45,555 nt of DNA from a virus. The stretch is from UHGV virus genome UHGV-2198558, one strand, 5' to 3'. The position numbers and the translations under genes are program-made. The notes under the pieces are model-generated. The model was not told where the DNA came from. It ran no database searches and saw only the letters and a list, made by a program, of their open reading frames with translations. Positions 29,545-40,723 of this stretch are shown one piece after another; the first letter of the stretch is position 1, and the number at the start of each line of letters is the position of its first letter.

Positions 29545-29776
29545 ATGTGCGGTCGTGACCGCTTACACAGAGATTTCTATGCTCAAGGGCGACGATCTGA
29601 AATATCTGTATGACTATCTTTCCGGCTTTATCGGCAGACCGGTGTATACACACGAGATTTCTGCTGTGGTGATGGCTTACAGAGAGCAGATCAGGGAGGA
29701 CTTCCTCGATCTGTGCAGGAACGCAAAGGAGGCGGATGATGGATCAGAAACACTTGACTCTCGGCAGCTTATTTGA
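29531..29776 (+). CDS. Hypothetical small protein
   Basis: GGGGAGGA RBS before ATG 29531; overlaps flanking methyltransferase genes. Confidence 0.4.
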   Translation: MTKHECAVVTAYTEISMLKGDDLKYLYDYLSGFIGRPVYTHEISAVVMAYREQIREDFLDLCRNAKEADDGSETLDSRQLI

Positions 29777-32339
29777 CGGCTCCGGTGGCTTTCCGCTTGG
29801 CGGCATCCTTGCAGGGATCGAGCCGAAGTGGAGCAGCGAAATTGAACCATTCCCGGTGCTTGTCACGCACAAGCGGCTGCCGCAGGTGAAGCACTACGGC
29901 GATGTATCCAAACTGAACGGAGCAGAGCTTCCGCCGGTGGATATCATCACCTTCGGCAGCCCGTGTCAGGATCTGTCCATAGCGGGCAAGCGCGCCGGAA
30001 TCCATGACGGTGATCGGTCAAACCTGTTCTTTCAGGCGATCCGCATCATCAAAGAAATGAGGGATGCAACAAATGGACGATATCCGCGATACTGCGTCTG
30101 GGAAAATGTCCCCGGCGCTTTCTCATCCAACGGAGGAAACGACTTCAAGGCTGTCCTCGAAGCAGTTATCGGAGTTAAAGAAAAAGGGATCGAGGTGCCT
30201 GCGCCTGAAAATCACAGATGGGCAAAATCAGACGTATATCTGGGAGACGGATGGAGCGTGGCTTACCGAGTTTTCGATGCTCAATACTGGGGTGTCCCCC
30301 AACGCAGAGCAAGAATCTACCTTGTCGCAGATCTTGCTGGTGGAAGTGCCGGAGAAGTATTATTTAAGTCCGAAGGCGTGTCTGGGTATACTCCGCAGGG
30401 CTTCCGTGCGTGGCAAGGAGCTGCCGGAGGTGCTGAAGAAGGCACTGGAGAGACAGGCGGGCGGTCTGACGCTGGAGGTGGAACCCTCTGCCTGAATACA
30501 CAGGGCAACAGCGGCGTCGGCATCACCGAGAACAAGGCTCTCGCACTGGTCGCACAGGATCATGGCAATCATCCGGCTGTGCTTCATGCGGTCGGTATCG
30601 ACGGCTACAATGCTGCGGTCACCGATGATACGGCAGCAACGCTTGGTGTGAACTGCGGAATGTCCACAGGCAGAAACGGTGTCCTGCAGGCGGCGGGATT
30701 TTCCACAGAACACAGTGCAAAAGCAAGGAGCATCGGCTACGAGGAAGAGGTATCTCCCACACTTCGAGCCGGTGTTGTTCCGGCGGCAATGGAGTTATAT
30801 GAAAATCATGGGCAGGACAGCAGATTCAGAGGACCTTTGGATGTAGCACAGCCTGTGACTGCTACCTACGGCATGGGCGGCAACAATCAGCCGCTTGTGG
30901 TAGAGAACAATCCCACGGACGGCAGAGCGAAGATCAATCCCGACGGTGTGTTTCAGACGCTCTGCGGACGAGCCGGAACAGGCGGAAACAACACGCCGCT
31001 TGTTGCTGAACCGGTCACGCTGAAAATCAGGTCGGGATGTGAGGGCGGTGGCAAGGGTGCTTTATGGCAGACCGACAAGTCTGCTACGCTCGGCACAAAC
31101 AATGACCAGAGTGTATTTGTTCCGTTCGTCAAGGGAACACGTCCGCACTCTGCTGAAGAGGGGCAAACATGGAAACCCGGCGAGGTCGCCAATACACTGA
31201 ATACCTTTGATGTCGGTGAAAGTCGCTGCAATGAACTTGTGGTGGAAGAGCCGCAGATCAGGGCTTTCGGTGTATGCAGCAAGCATTCCAATGCGATGAT
31301 GTCCGACAATCCGCACAGCGGATTCTATGAGGCGACCACAAGCAGAACGCTCGACCAAAGTGGTGGAAATTCTGTGACATCGAATCAGGGCGGCATCTGC
31401 GTGGTAGCACCTGCGCCTGAAACCTTCGATGTGCGTTTCACATCAGACGGTACAAAAAACGCTCGTGGGCATTGCTATCCGACAGACATCTCCCGATGCC
31501 TTGATACGAGCGAGGGATCGCCAGACTCGAATCACGGCGGTGTCGCTGTGGTGGCTCTTGAACCGGGGGCTGCATCACGTGTCGGCGGTCATGTATACAG
31601 TGACGGCAAAAGCGGTACGCTTCGAGCCAATGCCGGCGATAATCAGCAGGCTGTTGTGGTCGCCGAGCCGGAGACCTATGCTCTGCAAGGCTCGATGATC
31701 GGTCGTGCCGACAAGAACGGTCCGCAGGGTGATGGCATCAACGAGGATGTGTGCTTTACGCTCAATACATCGGACAGACACGCCATTGCCGCACCTGATC
31801 CGTCCTTCACAATTTCCCGCGACAACCATTTTGCCGTTTCGGAGGATGTATCCGTTACAGCCGTGGCAAGAGGCCCTGCGGCAGTCGCAGCACCGGCAGA
31901 CCACTATTGCACCAGTAAGAATTCGCATCATACGGTCGCCGCCCATGAGCAGGCAAACACGCTGGTCGCTTCCGACTGGAAGGATCCGCCGCTTGTGAAC
32001 GACCTTCCGAATGACGAGCCAGTATATATCGTTCGCCGCTTGACTCCGGTTGAGTGCGCCAGATTGCAGGGATTCCCTGACTGGTGGTGTGCCGACCTTG
32101 CAATTACTGATCCTTCCGATGAGGAGATCGCCTTCTGGACGGAGGTCTGGGAGACATGGCGGCAGGTCACAAATCCCAAGGGCAAGCCGAAAACGGAAAA
32201 GCAGATCCGCAAATGGCTGGCTGATCCGTACACGGATTCAGCGGAGTACAAGCTGTGGGGCAACGGTGTCTCAGAGCCGGTCGTATACTTCGTGCTTTCC
32301 GGCATCGCATGGGCAGCGCAGAGAGATACACAAAAGTGA
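29736..32339 (+). CDS. C5-cytosine DNA methyltransferase with an unusually long, repetitive target-recognition region
   Basis: Motif I LFDGSGGF, motif IV GSPCQDLSIAGKR, motif VI ENVPGA, motif X RRLTPVECARLQGFPDWW; about 550 aa between motifs VIII and IX with at least 8 TL-type motifs; 867 aa. Confidence 0.85.
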   Translation: MMDQKHLTLGSLFDGSGGFPLGGILAGIEPKWSSEIEPFPVLVTHKRLPQVKHYGDVSKLNGAELPPVDIITFGSPCQDLSIAGKRAGIHDGDRSNLFFQAIRIIKEMRDATNGRYPRYCVWENVPGAFSSNGGNDFKAVLEAVIGVKEKGIEVPAPENHRWAKSDVYLGDGWSVAYRVFDAQYWGVPQRRARIYLVADLAGGSAGEVLFKSEGVSGYTPQGFRAWQGAAGGAEEGTGETGGRSDAGGGTLCLNTQGNSGVGITENKALALVAQDHGNHPAVLHAVGIDGYNAAVTDDTAATLGVNCGMSTGRNGVLQAAGFSTEHSAKARSIGYEEEVSPTLRAGVVPAAMELYENHGQDSRFRGPLDVAQPVTATYGMGGNNQPLVVENNPTDGRAKINPDGVFQTLCGRAGTGGNNTPLVAEPVTLKIRSGCEGGGKGALWQTDKSATLGTNNDQSVFVPFVKGTRPHSAEEGQTWKPGEVANTLNTFDVGESRCNELVVEEPQIRAFGVCSKHSNAMMSDNPHSGFYEATTSRTLDQSGGNSVTSNQGGICVVAPAPETFDVRFTSDGTKNARGHCYPTDISRCLDTSEGSPDSNHGGVAVVALEPGAASRVGGHVYSDGKSGTLRANAGDNQQAVVVAEPETYALQGSMIGRADKNGPQGDGINEDVCFTLNTSDRHAIAAPDPSFTISRDNHFAVSEDVSVTAVARGPAAVAAPADHYCTSKNSHHTVAAHEQANTLVASDWKDPPLVNDLPNDEPVYIVRRLTPVECARLQGFPDWWCADLAITDPSDEEIAFWTEVWETWRQVTNPKGKPKTEKQIRKWLADPYTDSAEYKLWGNGVSEPVVYFVLSGIAWAAQRDTQK

Positions 32340-32416: not shown

Positions 32417-32599
32417 TCATTCAGATTTCTTGTCTCCGCCAAGCTCGATCTTTCCGTGCTTTTCCTCATATTTTTCAATGCAGTCACGGATCAGGATCAG
32501 AACCTGACTGTTGGCAGAACGACCTTCGTAATCGGCAACAACGTGAAGTTTATCAAGCATCTCCTGTTCGATACGGATGGATACACTTTTAATAGCCAT
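32417..32599 (-). CDS. Ribbon-helix-helix (CopG/Arc-like) DNA-binding protein
   Basis: MAIKSVSIRIEQEMLDKL... beta-strand then helix pattern; AAGGA RBS; the only minus-strand gene in the 35-kb plus-strand block. Confidence 0.55.
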   Translation of the reverse strand: MAIKSVSIRIEQEMLDKLHVVADYEGRSANSQVLILIRDCIEKYEEKHGKIELGGDKKSE

Positions 32600-32712
32600 A
32601 AAACAACTTCCTTTCAGATATATTATGACTTTATTTTAGACCTGTTTTGTGGTATAATGTTTGAAATGGATATAAAGTGTATCTAAAATATATCTATAAG
32701 AAGTTGTACGAT

Positions 32713-33051
32713 ATGAAAATAGCAATTATTGGCTCACGGGGACTTCATGTGAATGACCTTGAACGGTATCTTCCGGAAGATGTCACAGAAATCGTCAGCG
32801 GAGGAGCAAGGGGCATTGATTCGGATGCGCGGGCATACGCACAGGCACACGGCATTCCGCTGAAGGAGTTTCTGCCGGATTATGAACGCTTCGGCAGGAG
32901 CGCCCCGCTGAAACGGAATCTTGAGATCATCGCTTATGCCGATGTGGTGCTTGCATTCTGGGACGGACAGTCACGCGGCACGAAATATGTGATAGACCAT
33001 TGCCGGGAACAGCACGTTCCGGTCAGGGTTTTCGCACCGAGAAAGAAATAG
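32713..33051 (+). CDS. SLOG/DprA-like Rossmann-fold protein
   Basis: IAIIGSRG...VSGGARGIDSDARAYA...ADVVLAFWDGQSRGT pattern; start uncertain (ATG 32713 or GTG 32677). Confidence 0.5.
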   Translation: MKIAIIGSRGLHVNDLERYLPEDVTEIVSGGARGIDSDARAYAQAHGIPLKEFLPDYERFGRSAPLKRNLEIIAYADVVLAFWDGQSRGTKYVIDHCREQHVPVRVFAPRKK

Positions 33052-33283: not shown

Positions 33284-34192
33284 ATGGAAATCAAGTTCAA
33301 TATTGAAAAGAGCCAGCGCAAGGCACTGGCACAGAAAATCGGCGAGCTGACAGGAGCAGAGGTCAAGTACCTCGGTGTACCGGGCTGCAGATACCAGATC
33401 GACTTCTTCACCCTGGACAAAAACGCAGTCCTCAGTTTCAGCGACCGCATCGACACAGATATCGTGGAGAAGGTACTGAATGGGCTTGCAGAGGCAGGAT
33501 ATGAAAGCAAAACAGTAGCACCGCCGGAAGAAACGGATGCTTCGGCTGAATCAGAGCCGGATATCCCTGACGAACCGAGCAGCGGATTTCCGCTGCTCGC
33601 AAGCATCAGCTTCCCGATTGCAGAGCACACGGTGCAGAGCCTTACAAACCTTATCTGCATGATCCACTCCCGCGGCGCACTTCTCAGCAAGGCGACCGGC
33701 GGACAGTTCTTCGCAGACAAGAGCCTCGCCGATGCGATCCTCGATGACAAGACCTTCCGCAGCATCCACGAGCTTATCGCCTACATCAGAGTATGGGAGG
33801 AAACGAATCCCGAACTGAAGGGCATCCGTTTCGCCGATGACAAGCTGATCTTTGACGGCTTCGGTGCAGCGCAGGATGCCGAAACGGTGCAGACCTTCAC
33901 CAAGCTCGCCACAGCCATGAACAGGATGGCGATCACGCAGAAACGTGTGCAGGCAAAGGATGTCGATGACAGCAACGAAAAGTACGCACTCCGCATCTGG
34001 CTGATCCGCCTTGGGCTGAACGGCGCAGACTGCAAGGTTGACCGCAAGCGCCTCATGGCTCCGCTTTCCGGACACACCGCATTCCGCAACGATGCGGAGC
34101 GTGTGCGCTGGGAGGCAAAGCAAAAGGCAAAGCGTGATGCTGCCAGAACCGAACTGACCGAGGAGGATGAAAACGATGCAGTTTCCGAATGA
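33284..34192 (+). CDS. Hypothetical protein sharing a C-terminal module with the amidoligase
   Basis: CGGAGG RBS; C-terminus KYALRIWLIRLGLNGADCKVDRKRLMAPLSGHTAFRN aligns with the amidoligase C-terminus. Confidence 0.6.
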   Translation: MEIKFNIEKSQRKALAQKIGELTGAEVKYLGVPGCRYQIDFFTLDKNAVLSFSDRIDTDIVEKVLNGLAEAGYESKTVAPPEETDASAESEPDIPDEPSSGFPLLASISFPIAEHTVQSLTNLICMIHSRGALLSKATGGQFFADKSLADAILDDKTFRSIHELIAYIRVWEETNPELKGIRFADDKLIFDGFGAAQDAETVQTFTKLATAMNRMAITQKRVQAKDVDDSNEKYALRIWLIRLGLNGADCKVDRKRLMAPLSGHTAFRNDAERVRWEAKQKAKRDAARTELTEEDENDAVSE

Positions 34193-34424
34193 AAGACAGC
34201 TCAGAGCCTTGCGGGAGCGTTATCCCGCAGGCACCCGCATCCGACTGAAGCATATGGATGACCCTTATGCACCCGTACCGCCCGGCACGGTCGGCGAGGT
34301 TCAGATGGTTGATGACGGCGGCAACATACACATGGTCTGGGAGAATGGCAGAACGCTCTCCCTTATAGACGGTGTCGATGATTTCCAGGTCATTTCTGAC
34401 CGCAATGGGGGCTCCGGAAAATAA
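34176..34424 (+). CDS. Small conserved protein (DUF4314-like by recall)
   Basis: GAGGAGG RBS 9 nt before ATG 34176; GTVGEVQMVDDGGNIHMVWENGRTLSLIDGVDDF. Confidence 0.45.
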   Translation: MQFPNERQLRALRERYPAGTRIRLKHMDDPYAPVPPGTVGEVQMVDDGGNIHMVWENGRTLSLIDGVDDFQVISDRNGGSGK

Positions 34425-34537
34425 GAGATCCTATTCCATTGTATCCGAGTATACCATAGAATTTCAAGTATATCAAGTGTACACATACACCAGATATGAG
34501 CAATGTATTTTCCTCGATATTCTGTGGTTTTAGCGGC

Positions 34538-34566
34538 TTGCTATATCCTCCGAAAGACGGTAATAT
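34538..34566 (+). promoter_or_regulatory. Cassette promoter 2
   Basis: TTGCTA, 17-nt spacer, TAATAT, then conserved leader GTGACACAACGGAAGGGCAAACGCCCACCGAAAA. Confidence 0.55.
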
Positions 34567-34621
34567 GTGACACAACGGAAGGGCAAACGCCCACCGAAAA
34601 ACCGAATCGGAGGATACCAAA

Positions 34622-35566
34622 ATGACTGAGAAAACCGCACAGCAGATCAACAGAATGAAGGAGCAGACCATCGGGGTTGAGATCGAGATGAACAACATCA
34701 CCCGCAAGGCTGCCGCAAAGCTCGCCGCCGACTTCTTCGGCACGAACCGCTACGAGGACACGGCCTGCCGCAACGGCTACGAAACCTACAGTGCTTGGGA
34801 CGCACAGGGACGCGAGTGGAAATTCCAGAAGGACGTCAGCATCGCAGGCCCCGACAGCGAAAAGTGCGAACTGGTCACACCGATCCTGCACTACGCAGAC
34901 ATCGAAACCCTGCAGGAGCTTGTGAGAAGGCTCAGAAAGGCAGGAGCGCGCAGTGATTACACGCGGGGATGTGGAGTCCACTGCCACATTGGAGCCCAGG
35001 GACACACACCGCAGAGCCTCAGAAACCTCGCAAACCTTATGGCAAGCCACGAAACCCTGATCGCCGAGGCAATCAGAGTAGACCAGAGCAGAATGCACCG
35101 CTACTGCAGAACAGTTGACCCGAGATTCCTTGAACAGCTCAACCGCAAAAAGCCCACCACGATGGCACAGCTTGCGGACATCTGGTACGGCGCACAGGGC
35201 TGCGAATACGGCAGAACCCACCACTACAACGACAGCCGCTATCACATGCTCAACCTCCACGCTACCTTCACCAAAGGCACGGTCGAGTTCAGACTTTTCC
35301 AGTTCGCACCGCCTTCCAACGGCAAGCAGAACGGGCTCCACGCAGGCAAGCTCAAGAGCTACATTCAGCTCTGCCTCGCAATGAGCCAGATGGCAAAGGA
35401 CCTGCGGAGCGCCAGCCCCAAGGAACAGCAGAAGGAAAACAAAAAGTTCGCCATGCGGACTTGGCTGATGAGAATGGGATTCATCGGGGATGAATTCGCA
35501 ACGGCGAGAGAGGTCCTCACTGAGAACCTTACGGGCGACAACAGCTTCCGCTTCGGCAGATCTTAA
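34622..35566 (+). CDS. Amidoligase_2-family enzyme (putative peptide/metabolite ligase)
   Basis: N-terminal GVEIE motif; 314 aa; immediately upstream of an AIG2-like cyclotransferase gene, the conserved neighbourhood I recall for this family in Firmicutes phages. Confidence 0.65.
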   Translation: MTEKTAQQINRMKEQTIGVEIEMNNITRKAAAKLAADFFGTNRYEDTACRNGYETYSAWDAQGREWKFQKDVSIAGPDSEKCELVTPILHYADIETLQELVRRLRKAGARSDYTRGCGVHCHIGAQGHTPQSLRNLANLMASHETLIAEAIRVDQSRMHRYCRTVDPRFLEQLNRKKPTTMAQLADIWYGAQGCEYGRTHHYNDSRYHMLNLHATFTKGTVEFRLFQFAPPSNGKQNGLHAGKLKSYIQLCLAMSQMAKDLRSASPKEQQKENKKFAMRTWLMRMGFIGDEFATAREVLTENLTGDNSFRFGRS

Positions 35567-35831
35567 AGGCCTGCCCTTCGGGGCGGAAGAACAAGCGGAA
35601 CGGCACGGCGGCGCACACAGCCGCCACGGTCTCGGCTCTCGCCTCGGTCGGTGCTTCTGCTTCGCAGAGGTTGCCACTGGCAACCCGCACCCCCGTGTGT
35701 GGCGGAAAGGGTATCCTCCGAATCGGTATCCCATCTCAGTCAACCGCGCCACACAGCGCAAATGTAGGCAAGGCATAAAATGCACAACATACGGCACAGA
35801 ATCGCCCTCGATGATCTGTTCATTTACCCGC

Positions 35832-35860
35832 TTGATAATGCCGCCGAAATGAGTTAACAT
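35832..35860 (+). promoter_or_regulatory. Cassette promoter 3 (diverged leader)
   Basis: TTGATA, 17-nt spacer, TAACAT. Confidence 0.45.
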
Positions 35861-35899
35861 AGCACTACCGCAAGGAAAAAACGCAAAGGAGAACATAGC

Positions 35900-36367
35900 A
35901 TGAACAAGAAAAAATACTACATAGCCTACGGCAGCAACCTCAACATCCGCCAGATGCGATTCCGCTGCTCAGGCGCAAAGCCCATCGGCATTTCCGCGAT
36001 TCCTGACTACGAACTGCTCTTCAAGGGCAGCAAGACGGGAGCGTACCTCACCATCGAGCCGAAGGACGGCGGGCTTGTTCCGGTCGCCGTGTGGGAAGTG
36101 ACAGCCGACGATGAGAAGCACCTCGACATCTACGAGGGCTACCCGAACTTCTACTACAAGAAGGAAGTCCGCCTGCCAATCAGGCTGGCAAACGGCAAGA
36201 CCAAAAAGGTCACGGCATTTGTCTACATCATGCACGAGGAGCGTGAGATTGCGATCCCGTCAATGACCTACATCCGCACCTGCGAGGAAGGCTACCGCAA
36301 CTTCGGCTTCGACACCAAGTTCCTTGATGCCGCCTACGAGATCAGCGCAAAGGAGGTACAGCGATGA
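35900..36367 (+). CDS. AIG2-like / gamma-glutamyl cyclotransferase family protein
   Basis: YIAYGSNLNIRQM N-terminal motif; AAAGGAG RBS; 155 aa. Confidence 0.75.
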   Translation: MNKKKYYIAYGSNLNIRQMRFRCSGAKPIGISAIPDYELLFKGSKTGAYLTIEPKDGGLVPVAVWEVTADDEKHLDIYEGYPNFYYKKEVRLPIRLANGKTKKVTAFVYIMHEEREIAIPSMTYIRTCEEGYRNFGFDTKFLDAAYEISAKEVQR

Positions 36368-36564
36368 AAGACCGCAACAAAGAGCCGCACATCTGCCCGA
36401 AATGCGGGCAGGCGTACACCGCCCGACCAGCTCTTTCCCGCGTGGATAACAGCCCAATCTGCCCCGACTGCGGAACGCGTGAAGCGCTTGAAAGCATCGG
36501 CGTCGGACGCGAGGAACAGGACAAGATTCTCGGCATCATCCACGAGAAGTACGAAGGCGAATAA
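36364..36564 (+). CDS. Small zinc-ribbon protein
   Basis: ATGA overlap with the AIG2 stop; CPKCG...CPDCG. Confidence 0.5.
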   Translation: MKDRNKEPHICPKCGQAYTARPALSRVDNSPICPDCGTREALESIGVGREEQDKILGIIHEKYEGE

Positions 36565-36655: not shown

Positions 36656-36721
36656 AAACTATGTACCTGTTCAGCTTGCTGAAAACGGCGATTCTTCTAC
36701 GATTTATTTTGCACATAGGCG

Positions 36722-36750
36722 TGGACTTTTCAGGCAAAAGGCGGTAGTAT
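36722..36750 (+). promoter_or_regulatory. Cassette promoter 4
   Basis: TGGACT, 17-nt spacer, TAGTAT, then conserved leader. Confidence 0.5.
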
Positions 36751-36807
36751 GTGACACAACGGAAGGGCAGACAGCCCACCGGAATTCATAACATGGAGGA
36801 TACGAAC

Positions 36808-37322: not shown

Positions 37323-37395
37323 CCTCATGTGTAAATCCTACAATACGAAAGGCTGAGATCGGCGATTCTTCTACGTTTTATTTTGCACATAGGCG

Positions 37396-37424
37396 TGGAC
37401 TTATCAGCAGGATCATGGTAATAT
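37396..37424 (+). promoter_or_regulatory. Cassette promoter 5
   Basis: TGGACT, 17-nt spacer, TAATAT, then conserved leader. Confidence 0.5.
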
Positions 37425-37479
37425 GTGACACAACGGAAGGGCAGAACGCCTACCGAAAAACGAAACGGAGGATAACACC

Positions 37480-37800
37480 ATGAACCCCTACACACTGAGA
37501 AAGAGCCTGAACCTGATTGATGCCAACACGGCGATCACCCGCGAGGACTTCGAGAGCCTCTTCTGCAAGACTGCAGAGCGTGTCACCTTTACCTTCAACG
37601 GTTGGGACGGCAAGAGCTATGATGGCGAGAGGCGCAGCGGTTACGTTTACCGCACCATCATCGAGGGCTACGAGAATGTGAGATTCGTTAAGGTCGGCAA
37701 GGGACTGCATTACATCGATGAGGACAGCAGCATTACCGAGAAGGCTACGGGCATCGCCCACAAGGAAGCAGAGTGGCTGGTCGATGTGAAGAGAGCATAA
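37480..37800 (+). CDS. Hypothetical protein
   Basis: CGGAGGA RBS; 106 aa. Confidence 0.6.
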   Translation: MNPYTLRKSLNLIDANTAITREDFESLFCKTAERVTFTFNGWDGKSYDGERRSGYVYRTIIEGYENVRFVKVGKGLHYIDEDSSITEKATGIAHKEAEWLVDVKRA

Positions 37801-38366: not shown

Positions 38367-38430
38367 GCTTGGTGCTATGTATACAACAAATGGCGCAGAT
38401 ACGCCGATTTTGTTCTGAACATTTAGCCGC

Positions 38431-38459
38431 TTGCTATTCCGGAAAGATCATGGTAATAT
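38431..38459 (+). promoter_or_regulatory. Cassette promoter 6
   Basis: TTGCTA, 17-nt spacer, TAATAT, then conserved leader. Confidence 0.5.
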
Positions 38460-38515
38460 GCTACACAACGGAAGGGCAAACGCCCACCGAATACAAAACA
38501 CGGAGGTAAACCACC

Positions 38516-38898
38516 ATGACAAAGAAGGAAATGAAAGCCGCAGTTGCCAAGCTGAAGATGCTGCAGAACGGCAAAGCCGCCCTTGAGGGAATGACCGAAG
38601 CGGACTGCCTTGAGCTTTTCGGGATCAGCAGAGCGCAGGCACTTGCAAACACAAACGCCGCCCTTGCCAAAACCGAGCAGGAGATTTNNNNNNNNNNNNN
38701 NNNNNNNNNNNNGAGCATCCGCTGACAGGCATCGACAAACAGCTCTTCGAGATCGCAGCAAAGCACCTGATCACGGTGCAGGAGCGCGGAGACCTTGAAG
38801 CCCGCCACTGCGACAGCGAGGACTTCATCGAGGGTTCGGTCTGGGGGCTGGAAGCCGCCCTCAAGGATGCCTACGAGGCAGGACGCAAGAGCAAGTAA
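38516..38898 (+). CDS. Hypothetical protein interrupted by an assembly gap
   Basis: CGGAGGT RBS and ATG 38516; coding resumes after the N-run and ends at TAA 38896-38898. Frame across the gap cannot be determined. Confidence 0.4.
38688..38712. other. Assembly gap (25 N)
   Basis: Run of n characters in the sequence. Confidence 0.99.
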
Positions 38899-39740: not shown

Positions 39741-39843
39741 CCGCAACAGGGGCAGGGCTTCGGCTCTGCTCCGCACTATTCCCCGGTCATAATGTACACA
39801 ACTGAACGCCGAAAAATGCAGAAATGATCGTGATTACTCACGC

Positions 39844-39872
39844 TTGATAATGTAGGCAAGAAGAGTTATACT
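39844..39872 (+). promoter_or_regulatory. Cassette promoter 8
   Basis: TTGATA, 17-nt spacer, TATACT; leader hairpin variant gggcggaaagccc. Confidence 0.5.
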
Positions 39873-39929
39873 GTGTACAACGGAAGGGCGGAAAGCCCAG
39901 CCGAAAACGAAAATGCGGAGGTACACACC

Positions 39930-40575: not shown

Positions 40576-40638
40576 CAAGGCATAATATGTACAACAACCG
40601 ACAAAAAATCGCCTTGCACATTCTGGTAGTTTAGCCGC

Positions 40639-40667
40639 TTGATATATCTGCCGAAAAGAGTTATAGT
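40639..40667 (+). promoter_or_regulatory. Cassette promoter 9
   Basis: TTGATA, 17-nt spacer, TATAGT; leader variant with cgggaaaccg hairpin. Confidence 0.5.
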
Positions 40668-40723
40668 GTGTACAACGGAACGGGAAACCGAGCCGAAAAC
40701 TACGAAAGAACGAGGTAAACACT

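Follow-up and report, generated by a model that had tools for sequence, protein, structure and literature searches.

A predicted pseudoenzyme paralogue of a gut phage amidoligase shares its inherited Arg-rich C-terminal tail

The virus genome UHGV-2198558 was analyzed over a stretch of 45,555 nucleotides (the window), which, judged from its neighbouring genes and from related loci, belongs to a tailed phage or prophage of gut Bacillota resembling the Ca. Heliusvirales records PV0364xx. Two genes on the plus strand, referred to here as A (302 residues) and B (an amidoligase of 314 residues), encode proteins with similar C-terminal segments, and a first-pass annotation of the sequence had interpreted this similarity as a docking or targeting module shared by unrelated proteins. 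Profile comparisons showed that A is an ancient, diverged paralogue of B over at least residues A100-271 and B113-313. The sharing of the tail is in itself ordinary and reflects common descent. The explanation that we consider likely is that A is an ancient pseudoenzyme paralogue of B, and that the tail was inherited by both proteins and selected for a common non-catalytic function. The parts of the two genes to which the analysis refers are the following:

33284..34192, plus strand: gene A, 302 residues, with GGAGG 8 nt 5' of the ATG
33284..33517, plus strand: A residues 1-78, N-terminal alpha/beta domain (beta-alpha-beta-beta-beta-beta-alpha-beta) in the AlphaFold2 (AF2) model
33518..33592, plus strand: A residues 79-103, acidic disordered linker with a predicted local distance difference test score (pLDDT) below 50, differing in length by up to about 50 residues among homologues
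33581..34096, plus strand: A residues 100-271, homologous to B113-313 by hhalign
33878..34087, plus strand: A residues 199-268, the tail by BLASTP, with conserved core K225-R268; long helix, loop, two short helices
33980..34090, plus strand: A residues 233-269, the 37-residue segment of the first-pass annotation, by pairwise alignment
34622..35566, plus strand: gene B, amidoligase, 314 residues, with Pfam Amidoligase_2 at residues 13-254 (E 1e-55)
35342..35551, plus strand: B residues 241-310, the tail by BLASTP, past the end of the Pfam model from residue 255
35444..35554, plus strand: B residues 275-311, the 37-residue segment of the first-pass annotation, by pairwise alignment

Both open reading frames (ORFs) exist as previously described, and the similarity of their C-terminal segments lies far above chance. 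The 37-residue segments A233-269 and B275-311 align without gaps, with an ungapped BLOSUM62 score of 67 compared to a maximum of 23 in 20,000 shuffles, and full-length Smith-Waterman alignment of A and B scored 105 compared to 33.2 +/- 4.8 in 2,000 shuffles (z 14.9), none of which reached 105. Chance was ruled out by these controls as the source of the similarity, and the motif was found to be conserved in homologues of A as well as of B. Some particulars of the earlier description were in need of correction. The identities number 14 of 37, not 15; the segment does not form the end of A, as 33 further residues follow it and form a charged helix; and position 34085, given as the start, falls at the last two codons of the segment in A. 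The shared stretch is also not limited to 37 residues, extending to 70 by BLASTP (A199-268 to B241-310, 22 of 70 identities, E 4e-10) and to about 170 by profile comparison.

The absence of similarity claimed for the remainder of the two proteins was contradicted at the profile level. Alignment of family profiles by hhalign matched A105-270 to B118-312 over 165 columns (97.9%, E 6e-13). The use of a diverse A alignment (47 sequences, 28-53% identical to A) gave 99.6% (E 1e-24), and a broader B alignment of 57 sequences gave 99.8-99.9% (E 6e-30 and 7e-32), with A100-271 matching B113-313 over 171 columns. Because of the strength of this last alignment (99.9%, E 7e-32), A was recognized as a paralogue of B that has diverged from it, the relationship covering at least the C-terminal two-thirds of the amidoligase. 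A hidden Markov model (HMM) of the A core, with the tail left out, matched 17 of 64 B genes in viral loci; an HMM of the B core matched several A-like proteins, and these cross-matches fell after the HxH strand of B. By tblastn with B, the A-like proteins of two Heliusvirales phages were reached from B118 or B129 onward. Besides the tail, the two proteins share a second conserved block, HT.xSL.NL (A115-123 and B128-136), and the order of secondary-structure elements is collinear between their AF2 models. The profile alignments, HMM cross-matches and tblastn results together refute the description of A as an unrelated protein that shares a tail module with B. Since homology reaches about 100 residues upstream of the tail, the tail is common to the two proteins by descent and not through domain shuffling.

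The relationship had left different traces in public databases. Protein B matched PF12224 at 189.7 bits (gathering cut-off 22), with residues 13-254 covering profile positions 1-244 of 245, and belongs to the ATP-dependent carboxylate-amine ligases whose fold is of the glutamine synthetase / glutamate-cysteine ligase type, as assigned by this match. The A family, for which one search returned 2429 homologues, is labelled 'virulence-related protein' or 'hypothetical' in GenBank, and searches of Pfam (E <= 0.01) and NCBIfam with A gave no match. PHROG 2443, named 'amidoligase enzyme', matches A (E 1e-43) as well as B (E 4e-113) along almost the whole of each protein, so that one public database already groups the two families implicitly.

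Ten polar residues were invariant, or nearly so, in 57 B-family sequences (H120, H122, H128, H201, R206, Y207, N211, H213, E222 and R224, within the motifs HxH, HHYNxxRYxxxNxH and ExR). E20, E22 and E83 were also invariant, and an acidic ExE strand counts with the HxH and ExR strands among the active-site motifs. The catalytic status of these residues in B is taken by us from general knowledge of the fold. Nine of the ten polar residues are substituted or deleted in A, as judged from 47 diverse members of its family. H120 is replaced by S, T, N, Q or E, H122 by S or A, R206 by G, A or E, Y207 by L, M or I, E222 by T, I, S or V, and R224 by D, T or S; H201, N211 and H213 are deleted, and H128 is the sole residue retained. 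Amidoligase_2 of Pfam matched none of these 47 members at E <= 0.1. As residues that are invariant in the active-site region of B are replaced or deleted in A, we strongly infer that A is a pseudoenzyme, incapable of ligation.

The tail followed the opposite course. Twenty positions are conserved at 80% or more and identical in both families, and 12 of them lie within A K225-R268 (K225, N231, K233, R237, W239, R242, G244, G247, R254, L257, G263 and R268), including four invariant Arg (R237, R242, R254 and R268, which correspond to R279, R284, R296 and R310 of B). Eight residues do not vary across the diverse A family, and seven of these belong to the tail, which is nearly invariant in this family whereas identity falls to 28-53% in the remaining core; every homologue inspected had the tail conserved, and its consensus is N-E-K-[YF]-A-x-R-x-W-L-x-R-L-G-x-x-G-x-[DE]-[FY]-x-x-x-R-x-x-L-x-x-x-L-x-G-x-x-A-F-R. 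The AF2 models place its helices at A199-218, 232-243 and 248-258 (pLDDT 87-92) and at B241-260, 274-284 and 290-301. Altogether, the tail is an Arg-rich C-terminal helical subdomain of a Bacillota-phage amidoligase clade that was inherited by both copies and is under purifying selection.

Most of the tail (its conserved 45-60 residues or so) lies past the end of the Pfam Amidoligase_2 model, and searches with it against Pfam (E <= 10) and PDB sequences gave no match. Likewise, no PDB relatives were found by sequence for A, B or the DUF4314 protein encoded between them, and Foldseek comparison of the A model to BFVD returned weak matches only. The amidoligases of Arthrobacter phages, 25% identical, align only to about B261 and have different C-terminal ends without the tail, and the FP_Taranis amidoligase carries only part of the motif. 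The motif is thus specific to a clade and not required by the amidoligase fold.

A tail profile detected 2536 representative proteins among 1.84 billion, and the architectures of the best 150 of these were classified. The identifiable proteins amongst them were A-like or B-like, many others being short fragments with no recognizable upstream part, and seven were fusions (P0263, P0245, P0368, P0266, P0274, P0248 and P0244) in which the last 60-110 amidoligase residues follow another protein. Six have a recognizable partner (SNF2 helicase, response regulator, SpoIIP, AIM24, DUF3825 and SusE) and join it inside the core, at B203, 222, 233, 239, 248 and 254; the other part of P0244 had no Pfam match. 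A promiscuous mobile module was rejected, the fusions being clusters of 1-2 members and those with a recognizable partner having their break points inside the amidoligase core. Two of the fusion proteins are encoded on contigs of 50-57 kb, and some fusions may be real rearrangements rather than assembly chimeras. Amongst plasmids, the tail was present in 5 of 72,556 records.

These observations bear on four other explanations of the shared tail. The position of the tail past the end of the Pfam model, its standing as the most conserved block and the fact that pairwise BLAST sees only the last 70 residues would all be expected of a docking or targeting module attached independently to two unrelated proteins, as first proposed. 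This origin is nevertheless very improbable, given that homology by profile, HMM and tblastn runs about 100 residues upstream, that neither Pfam nor the PDB has an entry matching the tail as a separate domain, and that the best 150 of the 2536 tail proteins are A-like, B-like, fragments or 1-2-member fusions, of which the six with a recognizable partner are joined inside the core. A common docking role is the part of the proposal that is still plausible, as a shared non-catalytic binding function would fit the conservation of the tail, though its carriers are not unrelated. Recent gene conversion or recombination between the neighbouring genes, which are found at a distance of about 1.3 kb and in the same orientation, has a negligible chance of being the source. 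The tail-coding DNA of A and B is only 54% identical (60/111), A-B tail identity in 37 distinct phage loci with both genes is the same within a locus as between loci (0.394 in each case; permutation p 0.47), and each family keeps signature residues of its own. The DNA identity and the equal tail identities ruled out gene conversion and indicate old paralogy, not recent exchange.

The two remaining alternatives accept the paralogy. In one, A is a chimera, in which a duplicated amidoligase contributed its C-terminal two-thirds and an unrelated N-terminal domain and the acidic linker were added, so that A would not be a full-length paralogue. The disordered linker of variable length between the halves of A and the low predicted TM-score (pTM) of its model, only 0.55, speak for this, as does the lack of significant sequence similarity between the N-terminal domains: hhalign of these parts alone was non-significant at three alignment depths (P 0.0055, 0.12 and 0.039), though always in collinear register, and reciprocal HMM searches of 16,536 ORFs gave no cross-matches between the N-terminal parts of A and B. 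The secondary-structure order of the N-terminal domain of A in the AF2 model is collinear with B17-106, and a chimera appears doubtful, if conceivable. In the other, the tail serves only the folding or stability of the C-terminal half in this clade, a role suited to its many conserved hydrophobic and Gly positions (Y/F234, W239, L240, G244, G247, L257, L261, G263 and F267) and to its confident prediction in A, contiguous with the last core helix. The retention of four invariant Arg together with a Lys and an Asn in both families, at a tail identity below 40%, is not readily explained in this manner, nor is the near invariance of the A-family tail in a drifting core, and distant amidoligases fold without the motif; we therefore regard a purely structural tail as unlikely.

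The preferred explanation, of an inherited tail selected for a non-catalytic function, would have both proteins bind the same ligand or partner, most likely an anionic one, through the four invariant Arg, and the retention of the tail in a paralogue without catalysis fits such a common binding function. Candidate targets are the acceptor in the ligase reaction, the product of the adjacent DUF4314 gene, a nucleotide and a nucleic acid. An amine of the target would be joined by B to a carboxylate, probably that of a gamma-glutamyl group, and a neighbouring gene product of the GGACT family would reverse this reaction; both activities, the formation of a gamma-glutamyl-type amide by B and its reversal by GGACT, are presumed from general knowledge of the families. 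Protein A would recognize this target too but leave it unmodified, and might thus serve as an adaptor, protector or regulator. In a rough division of the possible roles of the tail, recognition of the DUF4314 protein is a tentative candidate; binding of nucleic acid, self- or hetero-oligomerization and a purely structural role are each unlikely, to a similar degree, and nucleotide binding is less likely again.

Several considerations weigh against this explanation. The N-terminal 78 residues of A are without established homology, and A could fuse an unrelated N-terminal domain to an amidoligase C-terminal part. Every proposed binding partner of the tail is a candidate suggested by sequence and gene context, and the conserved Arg could be nucleotide-binding or purely structural. 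In addition, A and B each occur alone in some phages, so a shared target is not required. Protein A is found without B in Streptococcus phage Javan630, Clostridium phage CWou-2020b and Blautia phage NatCom_27009, and B without A in Ruminococcus phage NatCom_28274, where the order is SLOG-DUF4314-B-GGACT; the two proteins are thus not obligate partners.

In Ca. Heliusvirales-like gut phages, A and B belong to a cassette with the order SLOG, A, DUF4314, B, GGACT and Zn-ribbon, which sits between DNA methylases and terminase genes. The other members of the cassette in the window are the following:

32677..33051, plus strand: SLOG/YAcAr (DprA-like) protein upstream of A, by Pfam; same position in loci L001, L003 and L008
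34176..34424, plus strand: DUF4314 gene, 82 residues (Pfam E 7e-29), with GAGGAGG 10 nt before the ATG at 34176
34520..34621, plus strand: promoter-like repeat and conserved leader directly 5' of B (repeat families D1, D2 and D7)
35900..36367, plus strand: GGACT/AIG2-like gamma-glutamyl(amine) cyclotransferase, by Pfam, with its own promoter-like element at 35832-35860
36364..36564, plus strand: Zn-ribbon protein, 66 residues, fused to DUF4314 in other phages

Of all neighbours of the tail-bearing proteins, the DUF4314 gene is the most constant (88% of loci). Counting only loci with enough flank, it was present in 58 of 67 loci on IMG/VR viral contigs anchored on A-like tails, compared to 53 for B and 50 for GGACT, and ten of these loci had DUF4314 without B. 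In species-representative genomes, almost all of Bacillota, the corresponding numbers among 48 loci were 42 for DUF4314, 31 for B and 26 for GGACT, with DUF4314 present without B in 13. No DUF4314 gene was found near the two tail-poor amidoligase loci checked, which with n=2 is a hint only. The order of the genes varies amongst phages, including A-DUF4314-B-GGACT, A-B-GGACT-GGACT-DUF4314 and A-DUF4314-GGACT-GGACT-B.

The likeliest start of the DUF4314 gene is ATG 34176 rather than 34167, since GAGGAGG lies 10 nt upstream of the former and homologues begin with MQFPNE. With this start it overlaps the final 17 nt of A, as it does in loci L001-L004 and L006, which suggests translational coupling. 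The DUF4314 ORFs of many related phages are fused to a CPxCG...CxxCG Zn-ribbon module, encoded here by the separate 66-residue gene, and others to a DUF5049-like module or a 'CYGK..W.S..EA..FY' module (ORFs of loci L023, L025, L030-L042, L048, L051, L052 and L060). The fusions with the Zn-ribbon module point to a functional tie of the Zn-ribbon gene to the cassette. Two-piece tblastn matches in four phages were considered as an amidoligase interrupted by an insertion. This candidate was dropped; in Terrisporobacter phage TPDSL_ph1, the one of the four that was opened, the match consisted of the tail of A joined to B across the DUF4314 gene.

The sequence 5' of B belongs to an intergenic unit repeated in the window at 34520-34621, 35814-35899, 36678-36790, 37352-37483, 38413-38518, 39841-39905 and 40621-40683. 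Many small genes, B and GGACT among them, have the unit in front of them. It consists of two promoter-like hexamers (TTGCTA or TTGATA, 17 nt, and TAATAT or TATACT), followed by a conserved leader with a GGGC-AAAC-GCCC hairpin, then GGAGG and the ATG. This arrangement suggests independently transcribed, moron-like cassettes, which would fit the way in which B, GGACT and DUF4314 change order from phage to phage. A scan of the window with Rfam gathering thresholds gave no match, and 25 N (masked bases or a gap) are present at 38688-38712, inside the array of small genes.

Taken together, A, B, GGACT and DUF4314, the last with its Zn-ribbon module, might constitute a phage system of reversible gamma-glutamyl-type modification, in which B would be the writer, GGACT the eraser and A a reader or adaptor, the Arg-rich tail common to A and B recognizing the DUF4314 protein or phage DNA near the methylase module. 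Phages with A and DUF4314 only, to which Streptococcus Javan prophages belong, would then carry a binding-only version, such as a decoy or shield. We offer this as speculation and consider it improbable in its entirety.

Members of Amidoligase_2 (PF12224) were reportedly described by Iyer, Abhiman, Burroughs and Aravind in 2009 (Mol Biosyst 5:1636) as phage and plasmid carboxylate-amine ligases of the glutamine synthetase / glutamate-cysteine ligase fold. Compared to this family, A escapes the Pfam model, is without the catalytic residues and carries in addition an acidic linker and, at its C-terminus, a charged helix. The conserved tail of A and B falls outside the model, and distant members, the amidoligases of Arthrobacter phages for example, do not have it. 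The name of PHROG 2443 implies an enzyme, whereas A lacks the catalytic residues. Annotation with Pharokka/PHROG has nonetheless labelled both the A and the B gene of TPDSL_ph1 'amidoligase enzyme', and in Clostridium clostridioforme LM41 prophage 13-alpha, genes 35 and 37 carry an amidoligase label from the same source, with a gamma-glutamyl cyclotransferase as gene 39 (PMC11318856). Amidoligase genes of unassigned role have also been noted near thymidine-hypermodification genes (Lee et al. 2021, PMC8989533).

Amongst better-known systems, the Pup system (PafA/Dop/Pup) offers a similar combination of two paralogues of the glutamine-synthetase-type fold encoded beside a small protein, with a gamma-glutamyl-type amide ligase and, in our case, a potentially reversing enzyme (GGACT) encoded nearby. 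The likeness is incomplete, as Dop has a working active site and A does not, and there is no proteasome context here. DUF4314 as a Pup-like tag was rejected, for it has no conserved C-terminal Gly-Gly-Gln/Glu; its ends vary (GGSGK, EGK, HD or none) or continue into Zn-ribbon or other modules. Lengsin resembles A in that the fold is retained and ligase activity lost (predicted in the case of A), but its lineage and context, the vertebrate lens, are unrelated, and it has no counterpart of the conserved Arg-rich tail. The literature searched held no mention of the lost catalytic residues of A, no discussion of the common tail and no experimental work on Amidoligase_2, DUF4314 or the A/B/GGACT cassette, and the cassette was not mentioned in papers on polyvalent proteins and Heliusvirales.

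The novelty of these results is modest and consists of the recognition of A as a widespread, apparently dead amidoligase derivative missed by Pfam, of the tail as a clade-specific Arg-rich subdomain and of DUF4314 as a constant genomic companion. For annotation, this means that the 'amidoligase enzyme' label is misleading for the A family, a predicted dead derivative common in phages and prophages of gut Bacillota. The Arg-rich tail is the best candidate for a substrate- or partner-recognition element of these amidoligases and, together with the DUF4314 link and the phages carrying A alone or B alone, may provide handles on the role of phage amidoligase/GGACT cassettes.

Some further observations concern the surroundings of the cassette. 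PADLOC HMMs gave no match for A, B, DUF4314, GGACT or the Zn-ribbon protein. The SLOG/YAcAr protein (32677-33051) had weak PADLOC matches to the DprA-like parts of PsyrA (E 9e-6) and ShosA (E 0.0054), from which it could have a mimic or counter-defence role. In the Arthrobacter phage Salgado (L089), the tail-less amidoligase adjoins a glutamine amidotransferase gene, not GGACT and DUF4314, which appears to be a different type of cassette built on the same enzyme family. Upstream in the window, the ORF at 29736-32339 encodes an 867-residue C5 cytosine methylase-like protein with a very long Gly/Ala/Ser-rich central insert. It is followed by a divergent ORF of 60 residues on the minus strand (32417-32599), and in loci L001 and L003, which have the same layout, a 60-residue gene with a weak Pfam match to Arc occupies this position.

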